DNA of 64,000 bases from a bacterium (GTDB taxonomy: Bacteria; Patescibacteriota; Minisyncoccia; Phycocordibacterales; GCA-002787175): positions 2,554 to 66,553 of the forward strand of contig JAUYKQ010000010.1 of the NCBI GenBank assembly GCA_030699905.1, written 5' to 3'. Under the pieces are notes generated by a model. The model worked only from the letters and a program-made list of their open reading frames with translations. It did no database searches and had not been told where the DNA came from. Position numbers and translations under genes: made by a program. This document shows positions 1,100 to 15,919 of this stretch, in pieces; the stretch's first letter is position 1; each line of letters starts with the position of its first letter.

Positions 1100-1345
1100 G
1101 TGTTGGTGATTTAACGCCGTGGGTACACCCGATCCCATTCCGAACTCGGCAGTTAAGCGCGGTAGTGGCGATGGTACCCGGCGCTTTGCGCGGAAGCGGC
1201 AAGGCAAGTTCGTCAAGTTATAAAGTGTAAAGTTCATCAAGTTAGAGAATTTCTTACTTGAAGAACTTGATGAACTTTTAACTTGATAAACTCACTTTGT
1301 CCGCTTGTGAACAAAGCGCCGGGGAGAGTAGCTAGTCGCCAACAC
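1100..1345 (+). rRNA. rrf: 5S rRNA carrying a ~145-nt hairpin insertion (~1178-1322) in the helix IV/V arm.
   Basis: 5' gtgttggtg pairs with 3' cgccaacac. Conserved ccgaactcggcagttaagcgcggtagtggcgatggtac and gggagagtag are present. The inserted sequence is ~90% identical to the insert in 16S at 12984-13082. Confidence 0.7.
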
Positions 1346-1407
1346 AGGGAGTTTAAATTTCAATCTCTTTTTCAATTTCTTGTTTTTCATAAAGCGGATA
1401 AAACCAT

Positions 1408-1432
1408 GAAGCGGACACCCCCGCTTTTTTGT
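1408..1432 (+). terminator. Rho-independent terminator after 5S (stem agcgg/ccgct plus T6).
   Basis: GC stem followed by tttttt. Confidence 0.5.
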
Positions 1433-1456
1433 TATTGAAAATATTGTTATCATATA

Positions 1457-1493
1457 GGGACTGTTGCCAAAACGGATATTCGGCAACAGTCCC
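1457..1493. mobile_element. Minimal MITE-like hairpin: gggactgttgcc / ggcaacagtccc 12-bp perfect inverted repeat with a 13-nt spacer. Same terminal repeat as the 164-bp element at 34055-34218.
   Basis: Perfect inverted repeat seen in sequence. Shares GGGACTGTTGCC termini with the longer copy. Confidence 0.55.
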
Positions 1494-1501
1494 ATCTAAC
1501 A

Positions 1502-2257
1502 ATGCCTTTATCTTGGTCATCAAAAAGACAGCTTAAGATTCTGTCGGCGTTAACCGCTCTGGTTCTTTTTCTCGTGGCTCTTCCTGCTTTTTTCGTCCTT
1601 TACGAAGAACCGACTTGTTCAGACGGCAACAAAAACCAAGGTGAACAAGGCGTTGACTGTGGCGGGCCATGTCCCGTTCTTTGCGAGGCGGAAGCTCTTT
1701 CGCCCGTAGTTCACTGGCAGAGGGCTTTTAAGGTTCAAGACGGCGTCTACAACGCGGTGGCTTATGTGGAGAACCCAAACCTTAATTCAGGAGCTTACGA
1801 TGTCCCTTACATTTTCAAATTATACGATTCGGAAAATATTTTAGTCCAGGAAAAGCGCGGTAGGGCTGATATACTGCCAAGGAAAATAACAGGCATCTTT
1901 GAAAGCGGTCTTTTGACCGGCAAACGCGTTCCCGCGCGAGCGACTTTTGAATTTTCAGGGAATTTTCTGTGGGTCAAAGAAGAGCCGGAGGATTTAGACG
2001 TGCGCGTAGTGAGCCGCATCCTTAAAAATGAAGAAACCGCGCCGAGAATTGACGCGGTGGTGGAAAATCTGTCTTTGGAAGAGGTTGTGAACGTTGAGAT
2101 TGTGGTTATAGTTTACAATACCGAAGGCAATGCCATGGCTTCATCTAAAACAATAGTGGACAAAATTCCCAAAGAAGGACAAGCTACCATCACTTTCACA
2201 TGGCCTGCTCCTTTCGGCGAGTCATCGGGAAGGATAGAGACGATAATAAACAGGTAA
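1502..2257 (+). CDS. Hypothetical protein: N-terminal TM anchor plus Cys-rich segment (CSDGNKNQGEQGVDCGGPCPVLCE).
   Basis: ORF with a hydrophobic N-terminus. No recognisable family. Confidence 0.45.
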   Translation: MPLSWSSKRQLKILSALTALVLFLVALPAFFVLYEEPTCSDGNKNQGEQGVDCGGPCPVLCEAEALSPVVHWQRAFKVQDGVYNAVAYVENPNLNSGAYDVPYIFKLYDSENILVQEKRGRADILPRKITGIFESGLLTGKRVPARATFEFSGNFLWVKEEPEDLDVRVVSRILKNEETAPRIDAVVENLSLEEVVNVEIVVIVYNTEGNAMASSKTIVDKIPKEGQATITFTWPAPFGESSGRIETIINR

Positions 2258-2262
2258 CTCTA

Positions 2263-3411
2263 ATGTTCGCAAACATCATAAGCTCTTTCGGCGCGCTTTG
2301 GAAGAGACAAAACATTGATTGGGTATTGGCAGGGTCTGTATTACCACTCGTGGTTTCCGGCCTTGTAACAATGAACTCTTTTACCGGAGAGTCGTTTTTC
2401 TTTGAACGTCAGCTTGTGTGGGCTTCTCTCGGTTTTTTTGTCATGTTTGTTTTGAGTTTTGTGGATTGGCGGTTTCTGCGGAGAACAGATGTTTTAGTTA
2501 CCCTGTTTTCAGCGACTTGCGTGGTGCTTTTTCTCTTGTTTTTTTTAGGTAAGACCGTTAAAGGCGCTCAAAGTTGGTTTGACTTCGGTTTTTTCTCTTT
2601 TCAGCCGTCTGATCCGGCAAAAATAATGGTAATACTTATTCTTGCCAAATATTTTTCCAGACGGCATATAGAAATAGCCCATATCAGGCATATTCTTGTT
2701 TCCGGTTTTTACGCTTTTACGCTCTTTCTTCTGGTTTTTCTTCAGCCGGACTTTGGTTCCGCGATCATCATTTTCATGATTTGGTTTGGAATGGTTTTGG
2801 TTTCCGGCTTGTCAAAAAAACATGTTTTTGCCGTTTTTGCCGTTGCTGTTGTGACTTTTTCCGCCTTGTGGTTTTACGTTTTTGAGCCGTATCAAAAATT
2901 GAGGATAATGAATTTTATCCATCCGCTTGCGGATGTTCGCGGTTCCGGATATAACGCGCATCAGTCAACAATAGCAGTAGGTTCCGGAGAGGTTTTAGGC
3001 AAGGGCTTGGGATATGGAACACAGTCGCGACTTAAATTTCTGCCTGAATATGAGACCGATTTTATATTCGCGGCCTTCGCGGAGGAGTGGGGTTTTGTCG
3101 GTGTTACAATACTTTTCGCTTTTTTTGCGATGGTGATTTACCGCATACTTATGAACGCGGTATATGGAGCCACTAATTTTGAAACTCTTTATGCTTTAGG
3201 TTTGGCCATTCTTTTTATGAGTCATTTTGTAATACACATCGGCATGAATATCGGTGTCTTGCCGGTTACCGGTACGACGGTGCCTTTTTTAAGCTACGGA
3301 GGCAGTCATCTGCTCACGGAGTTTTTGGGGCTTGGGATACTCATGGGAATGCGTCGTTACAACAGGGCGACGCACAGAGAGATGGTGAAAAATGAAATAG
3401 TTGGTATATGA
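2263..3411 (+). CDS. SEDS-family peptidoglycan glycosyltransferase (FtsW/RodA).
   Basis: 10-TM protein with the FtsW/RodA signature GSGYNAHQSTIAVGSGEVLGKGLGYGTQSRLKFLPEYETDFIFAAFAEEWGFVG. Start chosen at the internal MFANIIS so it does not overlap the upstream ORF. Confidence 0.85.
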   Translation: MFANIISSFGALWKRQNIDWVLAGSVLPLVVSGLVTMNSFTGESFFFERQLVWASLGFFVMFVLSFVDWRFLRRTDVLVTLFSATCVVLFLLFFLGKTVKGAQSWFDFGFFSFQPSDPAKIMVILILAKYFSRRHIEIAHIRHILVSGFYAFTLFLLVFLQPDFGSAIIIFMIWFGMVLVSGLSKKHVFAVFAVAVVTFSALWFYVFEPYQKLRIMNFIHPLADVRGSGYNAHQSTIAVGSGEVLGKGLGYGTQSRLKFLPEYETDFIFAAFAEEWGFVGVTILFAFFAMVIYRILMNAVYGATNFETLYALGLAILFMSHFVIHIGMNIGVLPVTGTTVPFLSYGGSHLLTEFLGLGILMGMRRYNRATHREMVKNEIVGI

Positions 3412-3426
3412 TATCGTCTAAGTCGC

Positions 3427-4713
3427 TTACGCGTCGTACACGTTGACTGTTTTTATTAGCATTTCTTCAAATGAAAAGTCGGACATTATTTTTTCTTTGA
3501 GTTTGGCGCCAAACTGTTTTCTGTGGTTTTTACGAAGTATCAGGAATTTAATGGCGCTCCTTAACTCTTCGGCCGATTCCGGCCTTACTAAAATTCCAGA
3601 TTCCATGTCAGTGATTATTTCCGGTATTCCGCCGACACTTGAAGCCACTACCGGCAGACCGGCGGCTCCCGCTTCCAAAACGGCGTAAGGCAGACCTTCT
3701 TTTAGGGAAGGGAACAAGAACAAATCAAGTCCTTTCAAGAAGACAGACGCCTCTTCCATATGACCCTTGAATTTGACGCTGTCTTGAATTTCGTACTTTA
3801 AAACCTGACTTTCCAGATTCTGTCTTTCTTCTCCTTCGCCTACCACGACCAAGACAAAATGTTTATAAGGCAATCCATACAGTTCTTTGTCTTTTAAAAT
3901 GTCGGCAAAGGCCTTTATCGCAAAAAACAGGCCTTTGTTTTTATGAAGTTCTCCAAGAGTTCCTATCATGAATGTTTCTTTGCCGTGTTTGTCATCCGAC
4001 ATTTCTTCTCTGGATTCGGACATTTTTTTGAATTTTTGAGGTCTGACGCCGTTTCTTATGAGGGTGATTTTGTCTTTGGATGTTAAGAAGCAAGGGGAAA
4101 GGTTCTCGTCATCCTTGGAAACGGCAATAACTCGGTCGGAGAAAAACACTGAAAGCCAAGATCCAAAAAACGATACGGCGCGAAAAAAGATGCCCCGTTT
4201 TTCTTTAAATGGCCAGCCGTGAACAGTGAATACGACTCGCGCGGAACTCGCCGTTTGGCTGTCCGTGTTCAAAAATGGAATATGGGAAACAAAATTTGTT
4301 AAAAAAGATGCTAAAGAGCCGAGGAATGCCGCCTTGGGACTGTTTAAATGTATAATGTCAGGCCTTTCTTTTCTTAGGATTTTTACAAGTTCCCAGAGTG
4401 ATTTAAATTCTCCCAGAAAAAAAATTTCCCGCGTAAAAGTTTTGACAAAAACAGTCCTGACTTTTTTTAGGGAAAGTTTTCTCGCAAGCTCTCCGGGTGC
4501 GCTTCCCATGGCACCCGTCCCGCCAAGCACTACCACGTTTTCGTATTTTTCCTTTGGCAGGGAAGTCGCCAAGTCATAAACGTATCTTTGAGCTCCTCCC
4601 CAGTTGCTTTTGGTTATCACAAAAAGCACTTTCTTTTTCAGCACCGGTTCCATGTCTGTATTATATTTCTTTTTTTGGTTTTCCGCCATAAAACTGGAAA
4701 TTGCGCGCCCCAT
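3427..4713 (-). CDS. Glycosyltransferase family 4 (GT-B, group 1). Start may instead be MAENQ (4689) or MEPV (4653).
   Basis: C-terminal EX7E-type motif EGLPYAVLEAGAAGLPVVASSVGGIPEII. Confidence 0.75.
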   Translation of the reverse strand: MGRAISSFMAENQKKKYNTDMEPVLKKKVLFVITKSNWGGAQRYVYDLATSLPKEKYENVVVLGGTGAMGSAPGELARKLSLKKVRTVFVKTFTREIFFLGEFKSLWELVKILRKERPDIIHLNSPKAAFLGSLASFLTNFVSHIPFLNTDSQTASSARVVFTVHGWPFKEKRGIFFRAVSFFGSWLSVFFSDRVIAVSKDDENLSPCFLTSKDKITLIRNGVRPQKFKKMSESREEMSDDKHGKETFMIGTLGELHKNKGLFFAIKAFADILKDKELYGLPYKHFVLVVVGEGEERQNLESQVLKYEIQDSVKFKGHMEEASVFLKGLDLFLFPSLKEGLPYAVLEAGAAGLPVVASSVGGIPEIITDMESGILVRPESAEELRSAIKFLILRKNHRKQFGAKLKEKIMSDFSFEEMLIKTVNVYDA

Positions 4714-4731
4714 GTTGTATCATGTGGGTAC

Positions 4732-6081
4732 ATGTCAGTGAACAACCGCAAAGAAGCCATAGTATTGCTTTTGGGCGACATAATACTTTTGTATTTCGGT
4801 CTCTGGCTCACTTTGTTCGCGCGCCATGGCCGATTGCCGGATAGCGAGCTTCTTTTGGCTCACATAGTTCCTTTTTCTTTCATTTTTCTTGCGTGGCTTA
4901 CTGTCTTTTTTGTAGCCGGTCTTTACGGAAGCCACACTCTTATTTTCAAAAGACGTCTGCCCGGTCTTCTGTTCAAATCTCAAATAGTAAACAGTATTAC
5001 GACTGTTGTTTTTTTCTACGTTATTCCATACTTCGGCATCACTCCGAAAACCATACTTTTCATTTATCTTGTGATTTCTTTCGGTCTGGTTTTGTTTTGG
5101 CGTCTTTACGGTTTCTCCGCTGTCATAAACCCCGCGAAAGAAAACGCAATAATAATCGGCCGTGGAGAAGAACTGAAGGAAATTTTCTACGAAGTCAATT
5201 ATAATCCCAGATACAGCATGAAGTTTATTTCCTCAATAGACACCGACGCGTTGGAGATGATTGACTTTCAGTCCGAAATAGTTGAAAGGGTTTATTCTGA
5301 AAATGTCACTCTTTTTGCCTTGGATTTGCATAATGAAAAGATAAAACCGTTTGTCCCGCATCTTTACAACCTTATCTTTTCCGGCGTCCACTTTGTGGAT
5401 ATGCATAAAATGTATGAAGATATTTGGGGAAGAGTGCCACTGTCGCTTGTTAAATACAACTGGTTTTTGGAAAATATCTCCAGCACGCCCAAGTCATTAT
5501 TTGACGTGTTTAAAAGAAGTATGGATATATTGGTCTCAATACCTCTTCTTTTTGTGCCGGCGGTTTGTTTCCCTTTTGTTTTTGTGGCTATGAAATTGGA
5601 AGACGGCGGTGGCGTCTGGAGCGTGCAGGAGAGAGTAGGCAAGAATAACCTGAAAATAAAGATACTGAAGTTTCGCACAATGACTGTTTCAAACGATTTC
5701 GGCCAGTGGGGCAAAGTTCAAAATAAAGTAACTCGGGTCGGAAATTTTCTAAGAAGGACAAGGTTGGACGAGTTTCCGCAGTTGTGGAACGTGCTTAAGG
5801 GAGACATTTCGCTCATAGGTCCTCGGCCGGAATTTGCCGAAGCGGTAAAACATTATACGGACGAGATACCCTATTACAACGTTAGGCATCTTATAAAACC
5901 GGGTCTTTCCGGATGGGCACAGCTTTATCACGAAAATCATCCTCACCACAAAGCGGACGTTTCCGAAACAAAAGTCAAACTTTCTTACGATTTGTATTAC
6001 ATCAAGAATCGTTCGTTTTGGTTGGATTTTAGGATAGCCCTGCAGACGGTGCGGACATTGTTGTCGCGGTCGGGAATGTAA
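4732..6081 (+). CDS. Polyprenyl-phosphate sugar-phosphate transferase (WbaP/bacterial sugar transferase family): N-terminal TM segments plus a cytoplasmic catalytic domain.
   Basis: C-terminal bacterial sugar transferase motifs KFRTM...DEFPQLWNVLKGDISLIGPRPE. Start at MSVNNRKE. Confidence 0.8.
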   Translation: MSVNNRKEAIVLLLGDIILLYFGLWLTLFARHGRLPDSELLLAHIVPFSFIFLAWLTVFFVAGLYGSHTLIFKRRLPGLLFKSQIVNSITTVVFFYVIPYFGITPKTILFIYLVISFGLVLFWRLYGFSAVINPAKENAIIIGRGEELKEIFYEVNYNPRYSMKFISSIDTDALEMIDFQSEIVERVYSENVTLFALDLHNEKIKPFVPHLYNLIFSGVHFVDMHKMYEDIWGRVPLSLVKYNWFLENISSTPKSLFDVFKRSMDILVSIPLLFVPAVCFPFVFVAMKLEDGGGVWSVQERVGKNNLKIKILKFRTMTVSNDFGQWGKVQNKVTRVGNFLRRTRLDEFPQLWNVLKGDISLIGPRPEFAEAVKHYTDEIPYYNVRHLIKPGLSGWAQLYHENHPHHKADVSETKVKLSYDLYYIKNRSFWLDFRIALQTVRTLLSRSGM

Positions 6082-6192
6082 AGCAGAGCGTGGAACGTGT
6101 AGCATGTAGCATGGAACATAAAAAGAAAATTCTTTTTCTGAATTTAAGGGCGAGTTTGGCGATTTGTTTGAATATGTTCCAGCCCGCCATAA

Positions 6193-6297
6193 CCCCACGA
6201 CACTTTGGCCGACAATTCCTTGGCAAAGAAACTTATCGGTTGGGAGCCGGAGGTGACGCTGGAGGAAGGGATTGATAAACTTAAAGAATTCTGTCAT
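6193..6297 (+). pseudogene. Orphan C-terminal fragment (~34 codons) of an NAD-dependent sugar epimerase/dehydratase gene: ...SLAKKLIGWEPEVTLEEGIDKLKEFCHDKF*.
   Basis: Translated frame gives the typical epimerase C-terminus. No upstream coding continuation (stop at 6190). A second copy of 55 nt of it sits at 6779-6840. Confidence 0.45.
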
Positions 6298-6778: not shown

Positions 6779-6840
6779 ACTGCTTGGCAAAGAAACTTAT
6801 CGGTTGGGAGCCGGAGGTGACGCTTGAGGAGGGGATCGGG
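6779..6840 (+). repeat. Second copy of the epimerase C-terminal remnant (direct repeat of 6218-6280; 42 nt identical, ~55 nt similar).
   Basis: cttggcaaagaaacttatcggttgggagccggaggtgacgct is identical in both copies. Confidence 0.6.
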
Positions 6841-8830: not shown

Positions 8831-9769
8831 ATGACTATTATAAAATACAAAAAAATATTCTTTATCGTTACGGCTATTTTCATAGTGGCCGCCATCGCGT
8901 CTATTTCCTTCTTTGGTCTTTCCGTGAGCATTGATTTTACCGGTGGATCCATATTTGAAATAAACTACTCGGCAGAAAGGCCGACAAAAGCGGCGCTTGA
9001 GGAAAGGTTAAGTGGGGAAGGGATAAACGGCTTTTCCGTCCGTCCTTTGGGAGATAGAGGTTTTATCATACGCACGCCCGAGGCGGGGGACGACGAGAGA
9101 GCAAAGGTAGCAAGCGCGATATCTTGGGAAAGTTACGAGTCGTCAATAGACCGTTTCAGCTCTATCGGTCCGACCGTCGGCAGTGAACTGAAAACCAAGG
9201 CCCTTATCGCCATCATCGTTGTTCTTTTGATTATAATTTTCTACATTGCCTACACTTTCAGAAAAGTCGGCGGAGAAAAAGACAGCGTTTCGGCAAGGAC
9301 GGAAGTGGAAACGTTGCCTTCTTCTTTGAAATACGGACTTACCGCCATAATAACTTTAGGACACGACATTATCGTGCCAGCGGGAGCTTTTGCCGTTTAC
9401 GGGTATTTTACAGGCGCTCAAGCAGATGTTCTTTTTGTCATGGCGCTTCTTGCCATACTCGGTTATTCCGTCAATGACACCATAGTCATTTTTGACCGCG
9501 TACGAGAGAATCTTCTCAATAACAAAAAAGATAACCACAAAGAAACATTTGACGAAACGGTCGGCAAAAGCTTGTCTCAAACATACGCTCGTTCCATAAA
9601 CACTTCTCTGACCACTCTTTTTGTTCTCATAACTCTGTTTTTTATCGGTAGCGAAACAACCGCCGCCTTTGCCTTTACTTTGCTTGTTGGCGTCATCGCC
9701 GGCTCGTACTCGTCCATCTGTTTCGCCGCGCCGCTTCTTACGTCGTTCGCGAAAAAAACCCATAATTAA
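8831..9769 (+). CDS. secF: Protein translocase subunit SecF.
   Basis: SecF architecture and motifs (DFTGG..., ITLGHDIIVPAGAFA, DTIVIFDRVRENL). Confidence 0.9.
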   Translation: MTIIKYKKIFFIVTAIFIVAAIASISFFGLSVSIDFTGGSIFEINYSAERPTKAALEERLSGEGINGFSVRPLGDRGFIIRTPEAGDDERAKVASAISWESYESSIDRFSSIGPTVGSELKTKALIAIIVVLLIIIFYIAYTFRKVGGEKDSVSARTEVETLPSSLKYGLTAIITLGHDIIVPAGAFAVYGYFTGAQADVLFVMALLAILGYSVNDTIVIFDRVRENLLNNKKDNHKETFDETVGKSLSQTYARSINTSLTTLFVLITLFFIGSETTAAFAFTLLVGVIAGSYSSICFAAPLLTSFAKKTHN

Positions 9770-9847: not shown

Positions 9848-11675
9848 AGCCGATACTGCCTTCAAAGGAGAAGGTGTGGACTTTGACAATTAAAACTTGA
9901 AATATTAAAGATTTGAGACGTGCAAGGTCTCAAAGTCTATTCCTTCCCGGCAGTAGAGAATTAAAAATTTTCACTGCGGGAAAAAAATGATTCCACCGGC
10001 TGACTAAGACAGCCGGCAGAGCAAGTTCAAACTCTTAAAACAACAAACAAAATTTCAGCAAAAACTGTCTTTTGTTTTGTTCCGTTCTAAAAATGCAGAC
10101 AAGATGCAAACAAAACTCCGGCGGACGAGGGAGGCAACTCCTCCGTAGGTCGGAGCGATGTAGGCAATAATGTCCTCATTTCTTAAATTAGAGTTTGATC
10201 CTAGCTCAGGATGAACGCTGGCGGCGTGGATAAGGCATGCAAGTCAAGGGTGTGTGCGGAGCACACAGTTTATAAAGTTATAAAGTCATAAAGTTCATAA
10301 AGTCAGAATCTTCTGCTTTACAAACTTTTTACTTTACGAACTTGTAACTTGTGCGCTTCGCGCACAACCGGCAGACGAGGTAGTAATAAGTAGGAATGTC
10401 CCCAAGAGTCAGGCATAGCTACGCGAAAGCGTGGGTAATTCCTGATGGTCTGACCGCATCACATGGAATGTGAATTAAGTTTATCAAGTTCATAAAGTTG
10501 CAAGTTTATAAAGTAAGACCAATGCCGGATTTTTTAGGCTCGCTTTTCTTACTTGATGAACTTTATAACTTTTTACTTTATAAACTTATTTCGCCTCTCA
10601 TGTGATGCGGTCAGTAAAGTCGCAAGACGCTTTTGGAACAGCCTACTCGGTATCAGCTAGATGGTAGGGTAATGGCCTACCATGGCTATGACGCCTAGGG
10701 GGGGTGAGAGCCCGATCCCCACCGATCGGACTGAGATACGGCCGATACACCTACGGGTGGCTGCAGCCGAGAATATTCCGCAATGGGCGAAAGCCTGACG
10801 GAGCGACGCCGCGTGGTTGATGAAGTTCTTAGGAATGTAAAAACCTTTTATTAGGGAGGAAGCGTGCGAAGCACACTGTACATGACACTGATGACACGAA
10901 TGTAAAGAACGAATGACACGAATAAAATTAACAAGACTTGATTTTATTCGTGTCATTCGCATCTTCTATTCGTAGATTCGTGTCGAGTTCAGCGCGCTTC
11001 GCGCGTTTGACGTTACCTGATGAATAAGGGGTTGCTAAACTCGTGCCAGCAGCAGCGGTAATACGAGTGCCCCGAGCGTTATCCGGAATCATTGGGCGTA
11101 AAGGGTGTGTAGGCGGCTTTGTTAGTCCTCTGTTAAATTCTTCGGCTCAACCGGGGTCTTGCAGGGGATACGGCAAAGCTTGAGGGTGTGAGGGGTGAAT
11201 GGAACTCATGGTGTAGGGGTGAAATCCGTTGATATCATGGGGAACACCAAAAGCGAAGGCAATTCACTGGCGCACTCCTGACGCTGAAACACGAAAGCGT
11301 GGGTAGCGAATGGGATTAGATAATCCTTGCCCGCTAATAAAACATAGGCAAAAGGTGTCTCTCCCGAAGGCGACTTCGGGATGAAAATCTAGCTGTATCG
11401 GGGAAACTCTCTGACACTATGCGCTTACTGGCGCGTTGGAGACAATCCCGAGGGAAGTTTTCTTGCATTGAAAGAAGGTTAATTTACCTGCATTGTAATT
11501 CTTGGAGCAATGCTGGTGCGAGTAAGGGAAAAGAAAAACAACTGTCCATAGTCGGAGGGTTGGGTGTTGCGGGGCTATCTGCACATCTCTTTGTCCAGGA
11601 AAAACCACCAACAGAAAGCGTGAGTAATTCGTGAAAGCGTGAATATGTGTCCCTTACTCAATTTGTTCTTTGGGC

Positions 11676-11754
11676 GCGGATGTAGCTCAGTTGGAATGAG
11701 TATCACCTTGATAAGGTGAGGGTCGCAGGGTTCGAATCCTTGCCATCCGCTCCA
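11676..11754 (+). tRNA. tRNA-Ile(GAU)-like sequence embedded in the 5' half of the 16S site-788 intron. Cloverleaf with a slightly long variable/T region; may be a functional tRNA, a pseudo-tRNA or a tRNA-like intron domain.
   Basis: Acceptor gcggatg/catccgc, D-arm gctcagttggaatgagt, anticodon stem tcacc/ggtga with loop ttGATaa, T-loop ggttcgaatcc, 3' tcca. ~70% identical to bacterial tRNA-Ile(GAU). Confidence 0.55.
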
Positions 11755-11871
11755 TTTTTCCGCCGAATTTTCGAAAAATTTGGCACCTTCTTTCAGTGCA
11801 AGACGACCCCGTAGAGACTATGAAATTGAGCAAGATAGTTGGTGCATTTTCTGTCGTAATGCAAAAAATAT

Positions 11872-12639
11872 ATGCAAAACGCGGATTCAAAATATGTGCC
11901 TTTGTCGAATCAAGTGCGAGCCATTATTCTAGGGTCAATTCTTGGAGATGGGTCGCTCAAGATTCAAAACGAGTACGCCAATGCGAATTTACAAATTCGT
12001 CATTCGGAAACTCAAAAAGACTATCTCTTATGGAAAGCGAATGTGCTTAAAGAGATAGCCGGAGATGGTAGTGTGAGCGTGCAAAAGCCGGATGGATACA
12101 GTACGAAGCCAAAGTGGAGGTTCAGGAGCAAGAGAACTCCAGCATTGACCGAACTGCATCATTTGACCTATAAGCACAATGCCTTGCGCATCAGGCGCAC
12201 ATGGTTAAATCAAATGAACGCTTTGTCGCTCGCCGTATGGTGGTGCGATGACGGTTCACTTATTGGCTACGGAGGCAGAAAAGGGGTGTTTTGTACCGAC
12301 GGCTTTGATGAAGAGTCAGTCAAAATACTTGCTCGCTATCTTGGAGTGGTTTGGAACATACGAGCGATAGTTGCTCCTGTCGGGCGAAAGCGCGATGGAA
12401 AGCAAGATCAGTATTGGCGGTTATGGATTCGTTCGCAGGAAGAATTGAAGAAATTTCTGCGTATTATCCTGCCGTACATACCTGTTTCGAGTATGCTCAA
12501 AAAAGCCATTCTACTCTATAAAGACCCTCAATTTCAACAACGCTGGATATCTGAAGTAATCAAGCTAAGTCCTTTTCCAGAATCTGTCATACTGGCGGAA
12601 TTTGAAAAAAAGAAAGCTAAATGGAATTGCTACAGATAA
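11872..12639 (+). CDS. LAGLIDADG homing endonuclease, double-motif, intron-encoded.
   Basis: Motifs LGSILGDGSL and LAVWWCDDGSL. Located inside the 16S intron. Confidence 0.85.
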   Translation: MQNADSKYVPLSNQVRAIILGSILGDGSLKIQNEYANANLQIRHSETQKDYLLWKANVLKEIAGDGSVSVQKPDGYSTKPKWRFRSKRTPALTELHHLTYKHNALRIRRTWLNQMNALSLAVWWCDDGSLIGYGGRKGVFCTDGFDEESVKILARYLGVVWNIRAIVAPVGRKRDGKQDQYWRLWIRSQEELKKFLRIILPYIPVSSMLKKAILLYKDPQFQQRWISEVIKLSPFPESVILAEFEKKKAKWNCYR

Positions 12640-12818
12640 AGATATAGTCCGGACTGCATGGAAACATGTAGAGCGAGGCAGAAATGCCCTCGCCTCCGCA
12701 TCAGGCGGAAGTAACATTTTCAACCCCAGTAGTCCACGCCCTAAACGATGTTCATTTGCTTTTCGGAGTATCGACCCTCTGAGAGGCGTAGCTAACGCGT
12801 TAAATGAACCGCCTGGGT

Positions 12819-12850
<32 letters not shown>

Positions 12851-13267
12851 AGACGGGGACTTGCACAAGCGGTGGATCATGTGGTTTAATTCGATACTAA
12901 ACGAAGAACCTTACCAAGCCTAGACATCCAAGGGAACTCCAGTAGAAATATTGGAGGCCACCACTTTGCGCGGAAGACGCAAAGTGAGTTCGTCAAGTTA
13001 TAAAGTATAAAGTTCATCAAGTTAGAGAATGTCTTACTTGATAAACTTTAAGAACTTTTGACTTGATAAACTTACTTTGTTCGCTTGCGAACAAAGTGCG
13101 GGGAGGAAGGCGAGGATGACGCCAGATCAGCATGACCCTTTGACGGCTTGGGCTACACACGTGATACAATGGCTGTTACAACACGTTTGCGACGGAGTAA
13201 TCCTGAGCTAATCGTTATAAAAGCAGCCCCAGTTCGGATTGAGGTCTGCAACTCGACCTCATGAAGT

Positions 13268-13314
<47 letters not shown>

Positions 13315-13322
13315 TCAAGTCT

Positions 13323-14262
13323 TGTACTCGGGTCGCCATGCGATCGAGTACGCTAGTTGGTGACCCGTCCTTCGTTAAAATTACGGAGGGCACGGTCCAG
13401 CTGTAATTTTTGAGCTTAATTAAATAAAAACCCCTGCTTATTTTATAAGGGGGGTTTAGGATCTAGAACTCTGAAAGCTGTTGTTGCGAGTTTCTATCTC
13501 TATTCTGCGGGACCGGCGTTGGATCTATTCAAACCAACCGCTTTCGCTTTTGGGGACTGATTTCGAACATTCTTCCAGAACTCCCTGACAAGATCCCTAA
13601 TTAATTAGGTCAGGACTATGTTACATGTTATCATATCTTGTGTTATCAGTCAAGAGCTTGAAAATTACAGCTGGACACGTTTTCGCTGAAGCTATAGCGA
13701 GGCGAGGAAATCCAACCAAGACAATTCACAGTGTCTTGAAGCGAAATACTAGTCTACTGTCCGCGAGGACTATAGATGAAGGAGTAAAGTAGCATTTCTT
13801 AGCTTGAATGCCAGTCATGGCGCATAACAGAGGTTATCCTGCGAGTACATGGAGAAACCTACTGTGTTACAAAAACTGTTATGCGTATCGTGGCATCGAG
13901 ATGAGAAAAAACAGTGTATTCGGTTACCGTGGGAGATCTCACTTGTTCTTTGTTTTTAAAGAGCAAAGTAAGCAATATATTAGGACGGGCAAAAATTTCC
14001 TAAAGTATTGATTAACAATAAGTGAGAAGTCTGCAGAGTCCGTAGTACCTATCGAAGTAAAATTTGATAGGGAAGGGACGAACTTAGAGGTTGTATGTAA
14101 TTTTTAATTTTGCATTGCTTGTCCCGTAGCGAGTTCTGCTCTGCTACAGGGATCATTTTGCATTTTGAGATTTGCATTTTAAATTTCTAAGAACCGCTAG
14201 GGTGCGGGAAAACCGCTTGCCCAGTGGTGTTTGGCTATTGAAAATAAATATCAATTGACCGA
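13323..14262 (+). other. ~940-nt ORF-less insertion in 16S near E. coli site ~1390, between cttgtac and accgcccgtca. Contains a long-range inverted repeat (13395-13411 / 13664-13680). Possibly a degenerate intron or other intervening sequence.
   Basis: Flanking conserved 16S segments gaatacgttctc...cttgtac and accgcccgtcaactcaagggagt. No ORF longer than 67 aa. Confidence 0.5.
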
Positions 14263-14353
14263 AAAACCGCCCGTCAACTCAAGGGAGTTGGGAATACCCG
14301 AAGCGCACGCTTTGCGTGCACTACGGTAAGCTCAATAACAGGGAGTAAGTCGT

Positions 14354-15287
14354 TATTGTAAAATACAATTGCGACCTGTCAAGGAAACTTGACAGAAAAA
14401 TCCAACTGAAATCGGTGAACCCCTCCTCTTTAATTTGTTATAATTAAAGGCATGAAGGCAATACCGAGGGAAGCTGGGAGAGTCACTTATTCAACGGAGA
14501 TTCGAAAGTTAAAAAATATTTCTTTTACCGAGGAGCAAAGAGCTCTCATTATTGGAAGTATTTTAGGCGACGGATGTCTGTGTGATAATTGGTCAAAGAC
14601 CAATTATCGTTTGTTTATCAATCATTGTCTGGGACAAAAAGATTACGTATGGTGGAAATACGGTGTTCTTAAGAATTATATCCTTTCAGAACCTAGATAC
14701 TATGATAGGAATAATTCCCTTACTATCCGGACCATTAGTCACTCTGAATTATCAGAATTGCGGAATGTTTTCTACAGAGATAAACAAAAAATAATTCCTC
14801 AAAATATTCAAGAATTTCTAAAGGATCCTCGCGTGCTTGCAGTATGGTTTATGGATGATGGTAACAATGTTATCCGGAATGGAAAAATTATTGGTTACCA
14901 CATCAACACACAATCATTCACACGAAAAGAAAATAAATTGCTTGCAAAATGTCTGTATGCCATTTACGGCATAGAAGCTCTGTTAGAACGAAATCATAAA
15001 AGGTATAGATTAGCAATTTGGAAGCGAGATTCGAGGTTGAAAATTAGAAACTTGGTAAAGCCGTATGTATTGGAAAGTATGCAATACAAACTCGGTTGAA
15101 TAAGCGACTCTCCTTAGCCCCGTAGAGACTGGATTCCGCTTAAAAGCGGATGAAGATAGCATGCACATAATGTGTCGCAGTGCCTCGACATTGCGATTAC
15201 GGTGCTATAAAACGTTGGCTCCATTGATAATTATCAATCGGATGAAGATATAGTCCATGCCCCAATGAAAATTGGGGAGAGAACATG
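14354..15287 (+). mobile_element. Group I intron at 16S site 1506 (between GUCGU and AACAAGG) with an internal homing endonuclease ORF. 5' exon ends in U; intron ends in G (omega G at 15287). R-like ccgtagagactgg ~15123-15136, S gaagatatagtcc ~15243-15256, P9-like hairpin ccccaatgaaaattgggg.
   Basis: Precise restoration of gtaagtcgt|aacaaggcacgggtagcggaagctgc (h45). Canonical P7 elements are present. Confidence 0.75.
14452..15099 (+). CDS. LAGLIDADG homing endonuclease, double-motif, intron-encoded.
   Basis: Motifs IIGSILGDGCL and LAVWFMDDGN. Confidence 0.85.
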   Translation: MKAIPREAGRVTYSTEIRKLKNISFTEEQRALIIGSILGDGCLCDNWSKTNYRLFINHCLGQKDYVWWKYGVLKNYILSEPRYYDRNNSLTIRTISHSELSELRNVFYRDKQKIIPQNIQEFLKDPRVLAVWFMDDGNNVIRNGKIIGYHINTQSFTRKENKLLAKCLYAIYGIEALLERNHKRYRLAIWKRDSRLKIRNLVKPYVLESMQYKLG

Positions 15288-15765
15288 AACAAGGCACGGG
15301 TAGCGGAAGCTGCTCGTGGAATATTTCAAGTGAACAATGTCAGGAGCGGATTATCGCGGATAAAAACGCTGATAGACGCCGATGACTGAACGAGTCGATA
15401 TCGCTATCTCTACGGAGTAAGCGGTGGATAAGATTAATATCCTAAAAAAAATCTGACAGACCGGAAAGACGGCACCCGCCGTATCACATGGAATGTGATA
15501 GCGGAAATCCAAAGCACGAAATACTAAATCCTAAACAATATCAAAATTCAAATGACAAAAATTCCAAACAGTAGTCTCTATTTTGAATTTAATATTTTGA
15601 TAATTTGAATTTGTTTCGGATTTCGGTATTAGAATTTCGGATTTTCCGCATCATCGTGTCTCATGTGATGCGGCGGTAAGGAACGGAACAAAACAAAGGA
15701 CAGAAGGTAAAAGAAATTTCAATTTCTAATTGTCTAATTCACATAGATGAAGACAAAGAAGGGTC

Positions 15766-15799
15766 AAAAAAACGGCTAAATATATTTAGCCGTTTTTTT
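15766..15799. terminator. Bidirectional rho-independent terminator: palindrome cggctaaata|tatttagccg flanked by A7 and T7.
   Basis: Perfect palindrome with flanking A/T runs. Confidence 0.6.
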
Positions 15800-15842
15800 G
15801 TTGCTATAGCGCGCTATTTTTGGTATATTTTCAGAGTAATTT

Positions 15843-15919
15843 GCGAGTGTAGCTCAGGTGGTTAGAGCACTCCACTGATAATGGAGAGGTCCCAAGTTCG
15901 AGTCTTGGCACTCGCACCA
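15843..15919 (+). tRNA. tRNA-Ile(GAU), with encoded CCA.
   Basis: gcgagtg ta gctc aggtggtta gagc a ctcca ctGATaa tggag aggtc ccaag ttcgagt cttgg cactcgc a cca: a canonical cloverleaf. Confidence 0.85.

Follow-up and report, generated by a model that had tools for sequence, protein, structure and literature searches.

The window, a stretch of 64,000 nucleotides (64 kb), carries rRNA genes of an uncultured Parcubacteria (CPR) bacterium. Homologues of the neighbouring ORF occur only in Parcubacteria/Patescibacteria MAGs, at no more than 57% identity, and SecD shares 49% identity with its counterpart in a Parcubacteria MAG, the best match among GTDB genomes; a search of these genomes for conserved synteny found no rRNA near this match. 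The closest sampled relatives are distant, with at most 57% identity for the neighbouring protein and 84-94% for 16S exon segments.

The arrangement of the rRNA genes is unusual. They are unlinked, with 23S-5S (1-930 onwards) 9 kb upstream of 16S-tRNA-Ile (10183-15919) on the same strand, and cell-envelope and SecDF genes are located between the two groups. The genes concerned here are the following (coordinates are those of the window):

507-930, + strand: 3' end of the 23S rRNA, downstream of a group I intron (2593 site) that occupies position 1 to ~506
1099-1346, + strand: 5S rRNA gene including an insertion, 248 nt, recognized by Rfam RF00001 and delimited by fold and alignment with relatives
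10183-15330, + strand: 16S rRNA gene, with exons at ~10183-11322, 12724-13317, 14264-14353 and 15288-15330 and three introns

The gene at 1099-1346 is the orthologous 5S rRNA gene and probably the only 5S of the organism. With 52.6 bits against RF00001 (gathering threshold 38) it belongs to this family, and the gene order 23S-5S-ORF251-FtsW is conserved, one relative having a normal 110-nt 5S at the same position. The length of 248 nt is about twice the 107-112 nt found in relatives. In the fold of 1099-1346, helix I is formed by TGTGTTGGTGA with TCGCCAACACA, 1099-1111 being paired to 1334-1346, and the gene proper closes with GAGAGTAGCTAGTCGCCAACACA, the pairing partner of TGTGTTGGTGA at its 5' end; nothing unusual is seen in helices II/III and loop C. 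Loop E is made up of GATGGTAC ... GGAGAGTAG, with a long arm (1177-1323) between its two halves. The full 248 nt fold into a core with a single long arm (-114.9 kcal/mol, z = -9.7). Alignment with the 5S genes of six CPR relatives shows that the core matches on both flanks of the insertion and contains the conserved blocks CCGAAC, AGTTAAG and GAGAGTAG. Fold and alignment therefore support the preliminary description of this DNA, which had noted recognisable 5S ends and loops and a long hairpin in the helix IV/V arm; the hairpin is now placed at the helix IV tip.

The distance from GGTAC to GGAGAGTAG is 146 nt in the window, 8-14 nt in most relatives and about 33 nt in one of them (L146). The net insertion amounts to ~135-140 nt and the inserted cassette to ~138 nt; the cassette is absent from the 5S genes of the six relatives. 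According to both fold and alignment, the insertion pairs with itself and not with the core, which is the property by which Stepanov and Fox define an expansion segment. A search with the 5S model, put forward in the preliminary description as a means of defining the insertion point, detected the gene but not the insertion limits, since the RF00001 match starts at 1101 and is wrongly closed at 1219, inside the insertion. The parts of the arm are as follows:

1177-1323, + strand: extended helix IV arm, with the stem CCCGGCG (1177-1183) / CGCCGGG (1317-1323) around the cassette, from the fold
1184-1204, + strand: 5' mini-hairpin of the 5S cassette, CTTTGCGC-GGAA-GCGGCAAGG; the same module occurs in 16S helix 40 (h40) of the window and of the relatives L137 and L106
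1205-1294, + strand: long AU-rich central hairpin of the 5S cassette
1295-1316, + strand: 3' mini-hairpin of the 5S cassette, CTTTGTCCG-CTTG-TGAACAAAG, weaker than its 16S copy

The 3' arm of the central hairpin is built from 9-nt tandem repeats (ACTTGATGA), and the 5' arm contains complementary AAGTTCATCAAGTT-type motifs. The whole 5S arm (1177-1323) forms a near-continuous stem of ~50 bp at the helix tip (-56.1 kcal/mol, z = -7.2). The insertion contains no ORF, and as an extended, ORF-less stem-loop on a helix tip it has the characteristics of the intervening sequences that are excised by RNase III. A group I or group II intron can be rejected, because no intron match was obtained over 1177-1323 or 12964-13103 at E-values up to 1, and the size of 138 nt is also too short for either type. 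The only Rfam matches in these stretches were chance matches to microRNA models, which dismisses an intron or tRNA-like identity of the insertion.

The counterpart of the 5S cassette lies in the 16S rRNA gene:

12964-13103, + strand: 16S helix-40 expansion hairpin, paralogue of the 5S insertion and its presumed source, with 87.9% identity in 140 nt

Positions 1184-1323 align with this hairpin over 140 nt without a gap and with 17 differences (123/140 identical), both basal mini-hairpins included, and the match has a blastn E-value of 7e-47 in a search within the window. An identity of about 90% had been stated before; the present value agrees with it, and the match is longer than was then stated. 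The differences are scattered, and the longest identical run is 23 nt. Like the 5S copy, the 16S copy folds into a long imperfect hairpin (-54.8 kcal/mol, z = -8.1), the 5S copy being the less well paired of the two. It has lost the pairs of positions 22/23 with 110/111 and those at positions 79 and 86, and its 3' mini-hairpin has a stability of -3.1 kcal/mol, compared with -9.4 kcal/mol in the 16S copy. The changes at positions 14, 15 and 118 of this copy add three G-C pairs to the hairpin when it is drawn as an extended rod.

The 5S/h40 pair is the closest-matching part of a wider related set, which includes hairpins in 23S helix 98 (H98), 16S helix 6 (h6) and 16S V2. The further hairpins in the rRNA genes are:

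705-842, + strand: related hairpin in 23S helix 98
10254-10363, + strand: related hairpin in 16S helix 6 (V1), 87% identical to the V1 hairpin of L137
10461-10604, + strand: related hairpin in 16S V2 (helix 9/10 region), taken as 10457-10608 in the comparison with the spacer hairpin
10865-11002, + strand: hairpin in 16S helix 17 (V3), with the same cassette layout and an unrelated centre
15484-15680, + strand: hairpin of 200 nt in the 16S-tRNA-Ile spacer, whose base copies that of the 16S V2 hairpin

A AAGTTYATMAAGTT-type motif is common to the hairpins in 23S helix 98, 16S helix 6 and 16S V2, and the hairpin arms consist of 8-9-nt tandem repeats that are mirrored on the other strand. The bases of the spacer and V2 hairpins (CCGYATCACATGGAATGTG ... 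TCTCATGTGATGCGG) are identical at 20/21 and 15/15 positions while their centres are unrelated, and the V2/spacer pair is a second duplication of a cassette base within the operon. Matches to the hairpin family outside the rRNA genes are absent from the 64 kb. The 5S hairpin hence belongs to a cassette-like set, built from tandem repeats, on the rRNA helix tips of this genome. For helices h6, h17 and H98 and the 5S helix IV/loop D, a shortening in CPR and an exposed position at the ribosome surface have been described, and h10 is a reported gap; h40 does not belong to these helices (PMC9297842). The V2 hairpin of the window sits in the h9/h10 region.

Cassettes of this type with AAAGTT repeats were observed in L121, a related Parcubacteria contig, at 8880-8990 in the 16S leader and at 10975-11090 directly 3' of the 16S, thus outside the mature rRNA. 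Their layout is mini-hairpin, repeat hairpin, mini-hairpin.

A metagenome scan with a 16S 21-mer located just 3' of the window hairpin yielded 120 related 16S loci; a separate scan with an exact 21-mer from the hairpin core gave no match. At the h40 tip, about 20 of the 120 loci contain a hairpin of graded length, between 30 and 175 nt; relatives without the expansion read GAGACTGCCCCCTCTCGGGGGAGGAAGG. The 16S element, which the preliminary description had assigned to V6, is therefore the helix-40 expansion of the clade, shared with these ~20 relatives, and the assignment to V6 arose because a ~128-nt gap in the window 16S abuts the hairpin to V6 (see below). Ten larger expansions have a constant layout, consisting of the h40 stem, a 5' mini-hairpin, a long variable hairpin and a 3' mini-hairpin. 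The mini-hairpin stems covary among lineages (CTTTGCG/CGCAAAG, CTTTTTGAGC/GCTCAAAAAG, AAGCGCG/CGCGCTT and CCAAG/CTTGG). Compared with the window 16S copy, L137 and L106 have a near-identical 5' module and an identical 3' module, and the 3' junction GCGAACAAAG-TGCGGGG-AGGAAGG is the same in all three. The 16S copy thus has the modules and the end (...CAAAG-TGCGGGG-AGGAAGG) that characterize the h40 expansion, and the 5S copy carries both modules. The occurrence of the basal modules in the window 16S, L137 and L106 indicates that they are ancestral at h40. With their GGAA and CUUG caps, the mini-hairpins of the h40 expansion look more like parts of a stable mature RNA than like a mere cleavage signal. 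Of the 18 relatives with a large expansion, 16 lack any h40 paralogue elsewhere in the locus; no full-length one was found, and the only partial matches are those in L090 and L109.

Since relatives have an h40 expansion with the same basal modules and a 5S without insertion, we infer from the sequence comparison that the 5S cassette is a paralogue copied from the helix-40 expansion in the 16S of the same organism and that the direction was from 16S to 5S. The full account that we favour, with a probability of roughly 0.6, is a DNA-level copy of the 16S h40 cassette onto 5S helix IV, whose transcript is probably excised. The copy would have been made at the DNA level from the 16S into the 5S gene, 11.8 kb apart on the same strand, probably by ectopic gene conversion or template switching. 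Short homology flanking the hairpin, the common strand and the 11.8-kb distance fit either process. Similar host stems may have helped, as h40 reads CCCCGCA/TGCGGGG followed by AGG and 5S helix IV reads CCCGGCG/CGCCGGG followed by GAG; helix IV of one relative reads CCCGC-TT-GCGGG. The 5S copy would since have diverged by 12% from the 16S copy.

In the RNA, the hairpin would be transcribed within the 23S-5S operon, fold into a rod of ~50 bp and be cut by an RNase specific for double strands, in the way in which RNase III processes the intervening sequences of bacterial rRNA. The predicted product is a nicked 5S, the two pieces of which are still base-paired. A near-continuous duplex of ~50 bp is a natural RNase III substrate, and this speaks against retention of the hairpin in the mature rRNA; by analogy with intervening sequences, its excision from the 5S transcript appears probable. 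Bacterial rRNA intervening sequences are located in helices 25 and 45 of the 23S rRNA in Salmonella, Leptospira, Coxiella and others, and RNase III excises them without religation. The window cassette shares with them an AU-rich stem-loop of 100-150 nt that replaces a helix tip, contains no ORF and is patchy among relatives, but it is found in 5S and not in 23S rRNA, it has two conserved flanking mini-hairpins, and its excision is putative. The short ORF-less insertions in CPR 16S and 23S rRNA are likewise suspected to be RNase III-processed intervening sequences (PMC11270868), and for most CPR rRNA insertions a comparison of gene and transcript led to the prediction that they are introns (Brown et al. 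2015, in PMC9297842). An insertion in helix IV should moreover collide with the cavity in which this helix docks in the 50S subunit (PMC7812874). A motif search detected no RNase III signature motif in the 64-kb window.

A possible, though clearly less probable, fate is that the hairpin is retained and that the mature 5S has ~248 nt, with a protruding expansion segment like that of Halococcus morrhuae; in Halococcus, a 108-nt 5S insertion remains part of the ribosome (PMC7530397). Retention is consistent with an insertion that folds alone and leaves the 5S core fold untouched, with the conserved and covarying junction architecture of the parent h40 expansion, which is typical of stable RNA, and with the three G-C pairs that the substitutions at 14, 15 and 118 add to the rod; 5S expansions that stay in the ribosome have precedents in prokaryotes (PMC7812874, PMC7530397). 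However, helix IV/loop D docks inside the 50S subunit, and a helix IV insertion of only 69 nt was judged likely to be sterically incompatible (PMC7812874); Parcubacteria otherwise shorten helix IV, their 5S being described as reduced at helix IV/loop D (PMC9297842). A farther-reaching version, in which the cassettes are actively spreading, rRNA-operon-specific modules that move from one helix tip to another and in which functional ribosomes contain the 5S copy, is unlikely. If it were true, the 248-nt bacterial 5S would be the largest known in prokaryotes.

Both fates take the 5S cassette as a copy of the h40 expansion. A different origin, in which the cassettes are autonomous mobile palindromic elements of the MITE or REP type that reside in helix tips and the 5S copy arose by transposition, is even less likely. 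Several related cassettes are present in 23S, 16S, 5S and spacer, the L121 cassettes also occupy the leader and trailer of the 16S, and the palindromic form is shared with MITEs. Yet there is no target-site duplication, the flanks CCCGGCG/CGCCGGG being inverted and not direct repeats, and no associated gene, and the restriction of all copies to the rRNA genes within the 64 kb does not conform to MITE or REP elements. The sites share layout and repeat motif, but a full-length match exists only in the 5S/h40 pair, and arms of 8-9-nt tandem repeats are what growth by slippage in situ would produce. In relatives, the h40 expansions are graded in length and always occupy one site, and 16 of the 18 large ones are without a paralogue elsewhere in the locus. 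Of the two processes named in the preliminary description, transposition and gene conversion, copying is thus the sensible reading, whereas transposition is left unsupported by the lack of a target-site duplication, an associated gene and a copy outside the rRNA genes.

It is very unlikely that the 5S insertion is an assembly chimera, into which 16S hairpin reads were threaded, or that the gene is a dead 5S pseudogene beside a normal copy. The insertion is documented by short-read metagenome assemblies of a single organism, and the adjoining 16S shows that such an assembly can hold local errors. A chimera is nevertheless difficult to reconcile with the 17 scattered differences and the short identical runs between the copies. 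Logan contig L001 (run SRR13727534) is 100% identical to window positions 1129-6248 and covers the insertion and both junctions, continuing into the neighbouring genes. The Logan assembly uses k = 31, and as no 31-mer is common to both hairpin copies, an assembly with this k cannot confuse them. The protein adjoining the 5S (1502-2257) is present on a Logan contig of SRR13727534 and in an NCBI MAG (locus tag Q8P86_01375, on a 92.5-kb contig). The identical independent assembly therefore makes mis-assembly of the 5S, which the preliminary description had named as the observation that would overturn its claim, unlikely. As for a pseudogene, some helix IV insertions were viewed as steps in that direction by Stepanov and Fox (PMC7812874), but the 5S core of the window retains all blocks conserved in relatives, at the orthologous position, and CPR genomes are described as normally having one rRNA copy (PMC9297842). 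Further Logan contigs agree with the window over 11297-12749 and 14403-15306, as does a second run (SRR26726065) over 11544-12750.

The 16S gene itself has a defect directly upstream of the hairpin:

12957-12964, + strand: junction of a ~128-nt gap in the 16S; the 3' half of V6, the stretch from the h34 5' strand to h39, and the h40 5' strand are absent

At this junction, the window 16S runs from the V6 inner hairpin (…ATTGGAG GCCACCAC) directly into the cassette. The length of the missing stretch is that measured in L137, and its expected sequence is ACAGGTG...GTCGTCAGTTCGTG...CGCAACCC...GAGACTGCCCCGCA. The whole window was searched with E. coli and L137 queries by blastn (word size 7) and nhmmer --max; the h34-h39 motifs (GTCGTCAGYTCGTG ... 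CGCAACGARCGCAACCC) are absent from all 64 kb, and the 16S as assembled is not intact. The segment is present in every relative with enough upstream sequence. No independent contig extends over 12750-13330, as the Logan 16S contigs stop at 12749/12750 and resume at 14403, and neither exact look-ups of small ORFs (13017-13169 and 12886-13017) nor a homology search with the 44-aa junction ORF retrieved one.

To our knowledge, no ribosome lacks helix 34, and CPR have one rRNA copy; a local assembly or consensus error is for these reasons the likely cause of the gap and is favoured over a real, very recent deletion. Decay of the 16S into a pseudogene is rejected for the rest of the gene, in which only 6 of 600 clade-invariant columns deviate, two of these changes resembling a compensatory pair. 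A collapse of repeats between the two hairpin copies is an unlikely cause, because both arms of the 16S hairpin share the mismatch pattern of the 5S copy, which marks the hairpin as one whole element. The breakpoints of the gap share few bases at most, so that a simple k-mer collapse is no explanation. That the 16S truly lacks h34-h39 and that the segment is supplied from elsewhere is very improbable. The probable defect slightly lowers the trust in the adjoining 16S partner stretch, the 3' junction of which still matches relatives exactly. It also calls for caution with MAG-derived 16S sequences, as 128 universally conserved bases are missing here although the rest of the gene looks perfect.

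Expanded 5S rRNAs were screened by Stepanov and Fox in Rfam, 5SrRNAdb and all RefSeq genomes, which yielded 89 cases with insertions of 13-109 nt in Clostridiales, Halanaerobiales, Thermoanaerobacterales, Alteromonadales and Halobacteriales; the insertions in 5S, 16S and 23S were concluded to be independently acquired (PMC7812874). The window 5S resembles these expansions in having a self-pairing helix in a conserved core, in its sporadic taxonomic occurrence and in the undisturbed core fold. It differs from them in its length (~138 nt compared with a maximum of 109 nt), in its host, as CPR/Parcubacteria are not listed there, and in its location at the helix IV tip together with an identifiable donor, 16S h40 of the same genome (PMC7812874). 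For CPR, the survey by Tsurumaki et al. gives no insertion of at least 100 bp in 645 5S genes (PMC11270868). Taken with the prokaryotic maximum of 109 nt, this agrees with the earlier remark that 5S insertions are rare. The window contains the first large CPR 5S insertion, which is longer than any reported in prokaryotes and for which a donor can be identified in a different rRNA of this genome. Such genes may escape 5S surveys that rely on models, because Rfam ends the gene inside the insertion; Rfam-based detection would truncate genes like the window 5S, and this may explain the absence of insertions among the 645 genes (PMC11270868). The 16S and 23S hairpins of the window are members of the class of short ORF-less CPR insertions described by Tsurumaki et al. 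(2024, PMC11270868; 2022, PMC9297842), with which the 5S cassette shares the phylum, a length below 200 bp and the position on stem-loop tips. Sequence identity between insertions in different rRNAs is not reported in the accessible portion of that survey (PMC11270868).

The gain of rRNA expansions is usually inferred from comparisons across distant species, whereas in this genome a donor and a recipient appear side by side, only 12% diverged, with a helix-tip module of the small subunit apparently grafted onto the 5S of the large subunit. The presence of both in one genome makes it possible to test where the expansion came from and whether it arose by copying between GC-rich stems that resemble each other. 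According to Hancock and Dover, eukaryotic rRNA expansion segments reportedly evolve by compensatory slippage and share simple motifs. The cassettes of the window are similar to these segments in their mirrored arms of short tandem repeats and in the recurrence of the same motif in several expansions of one genome. Unlike them, they occur in a bacterium, and the 5S/h40 pair is a full-length duplication and not just the result of a motif bias.

The three 16S introns comprise two with LAGLIDADG_2 genes and one that is group II-like at ~position 1400. The latter, an ORF-less insertion at 13318-14263, contains a match to a group II intron domain (14009-14078, 44.3 bits) and corresponds to 16IS9, a site at which an accumulation of group II-like insertions has been published for CPR. 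The first intron (~11323-12723) harbours a tRNA-Ile(GAU) at 11676-11754 (57.5 bits), upstream of the LAGLIDADG gene, and the sequence of this intronic tRNA is confirmed by Logan contigs of two runs; in the 120 related loci, no 16S gene contains a tRNA. A second, different tRNA-Ile(GAU) occupies the usual spacer position (15843-15919). The 3' end of the 16S (15288-15330) reads ...GCTGCTCGTGGAATATTTCAAG, without the CCTCC anti-Shine-Dalgarno sequence, and L121 has the same ending. The anti-Shine-Dalgarno sequence is described as absent in about half of Parcubacteria (PMC9297842), and its loss and rRNA introns are both published CPR traits (PMC9297842, PMC11270868). Between the two groups of rRNA genes, two 54-nt stretches (6219-6272 and 6783-6836) are 96% identical and flank small membrane-protein ORFs, and Logan contig L001 ends at this repeat. 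The repeats are suspected to be remnants of an epimerase gene that relatives carry beside the sugar transferase.
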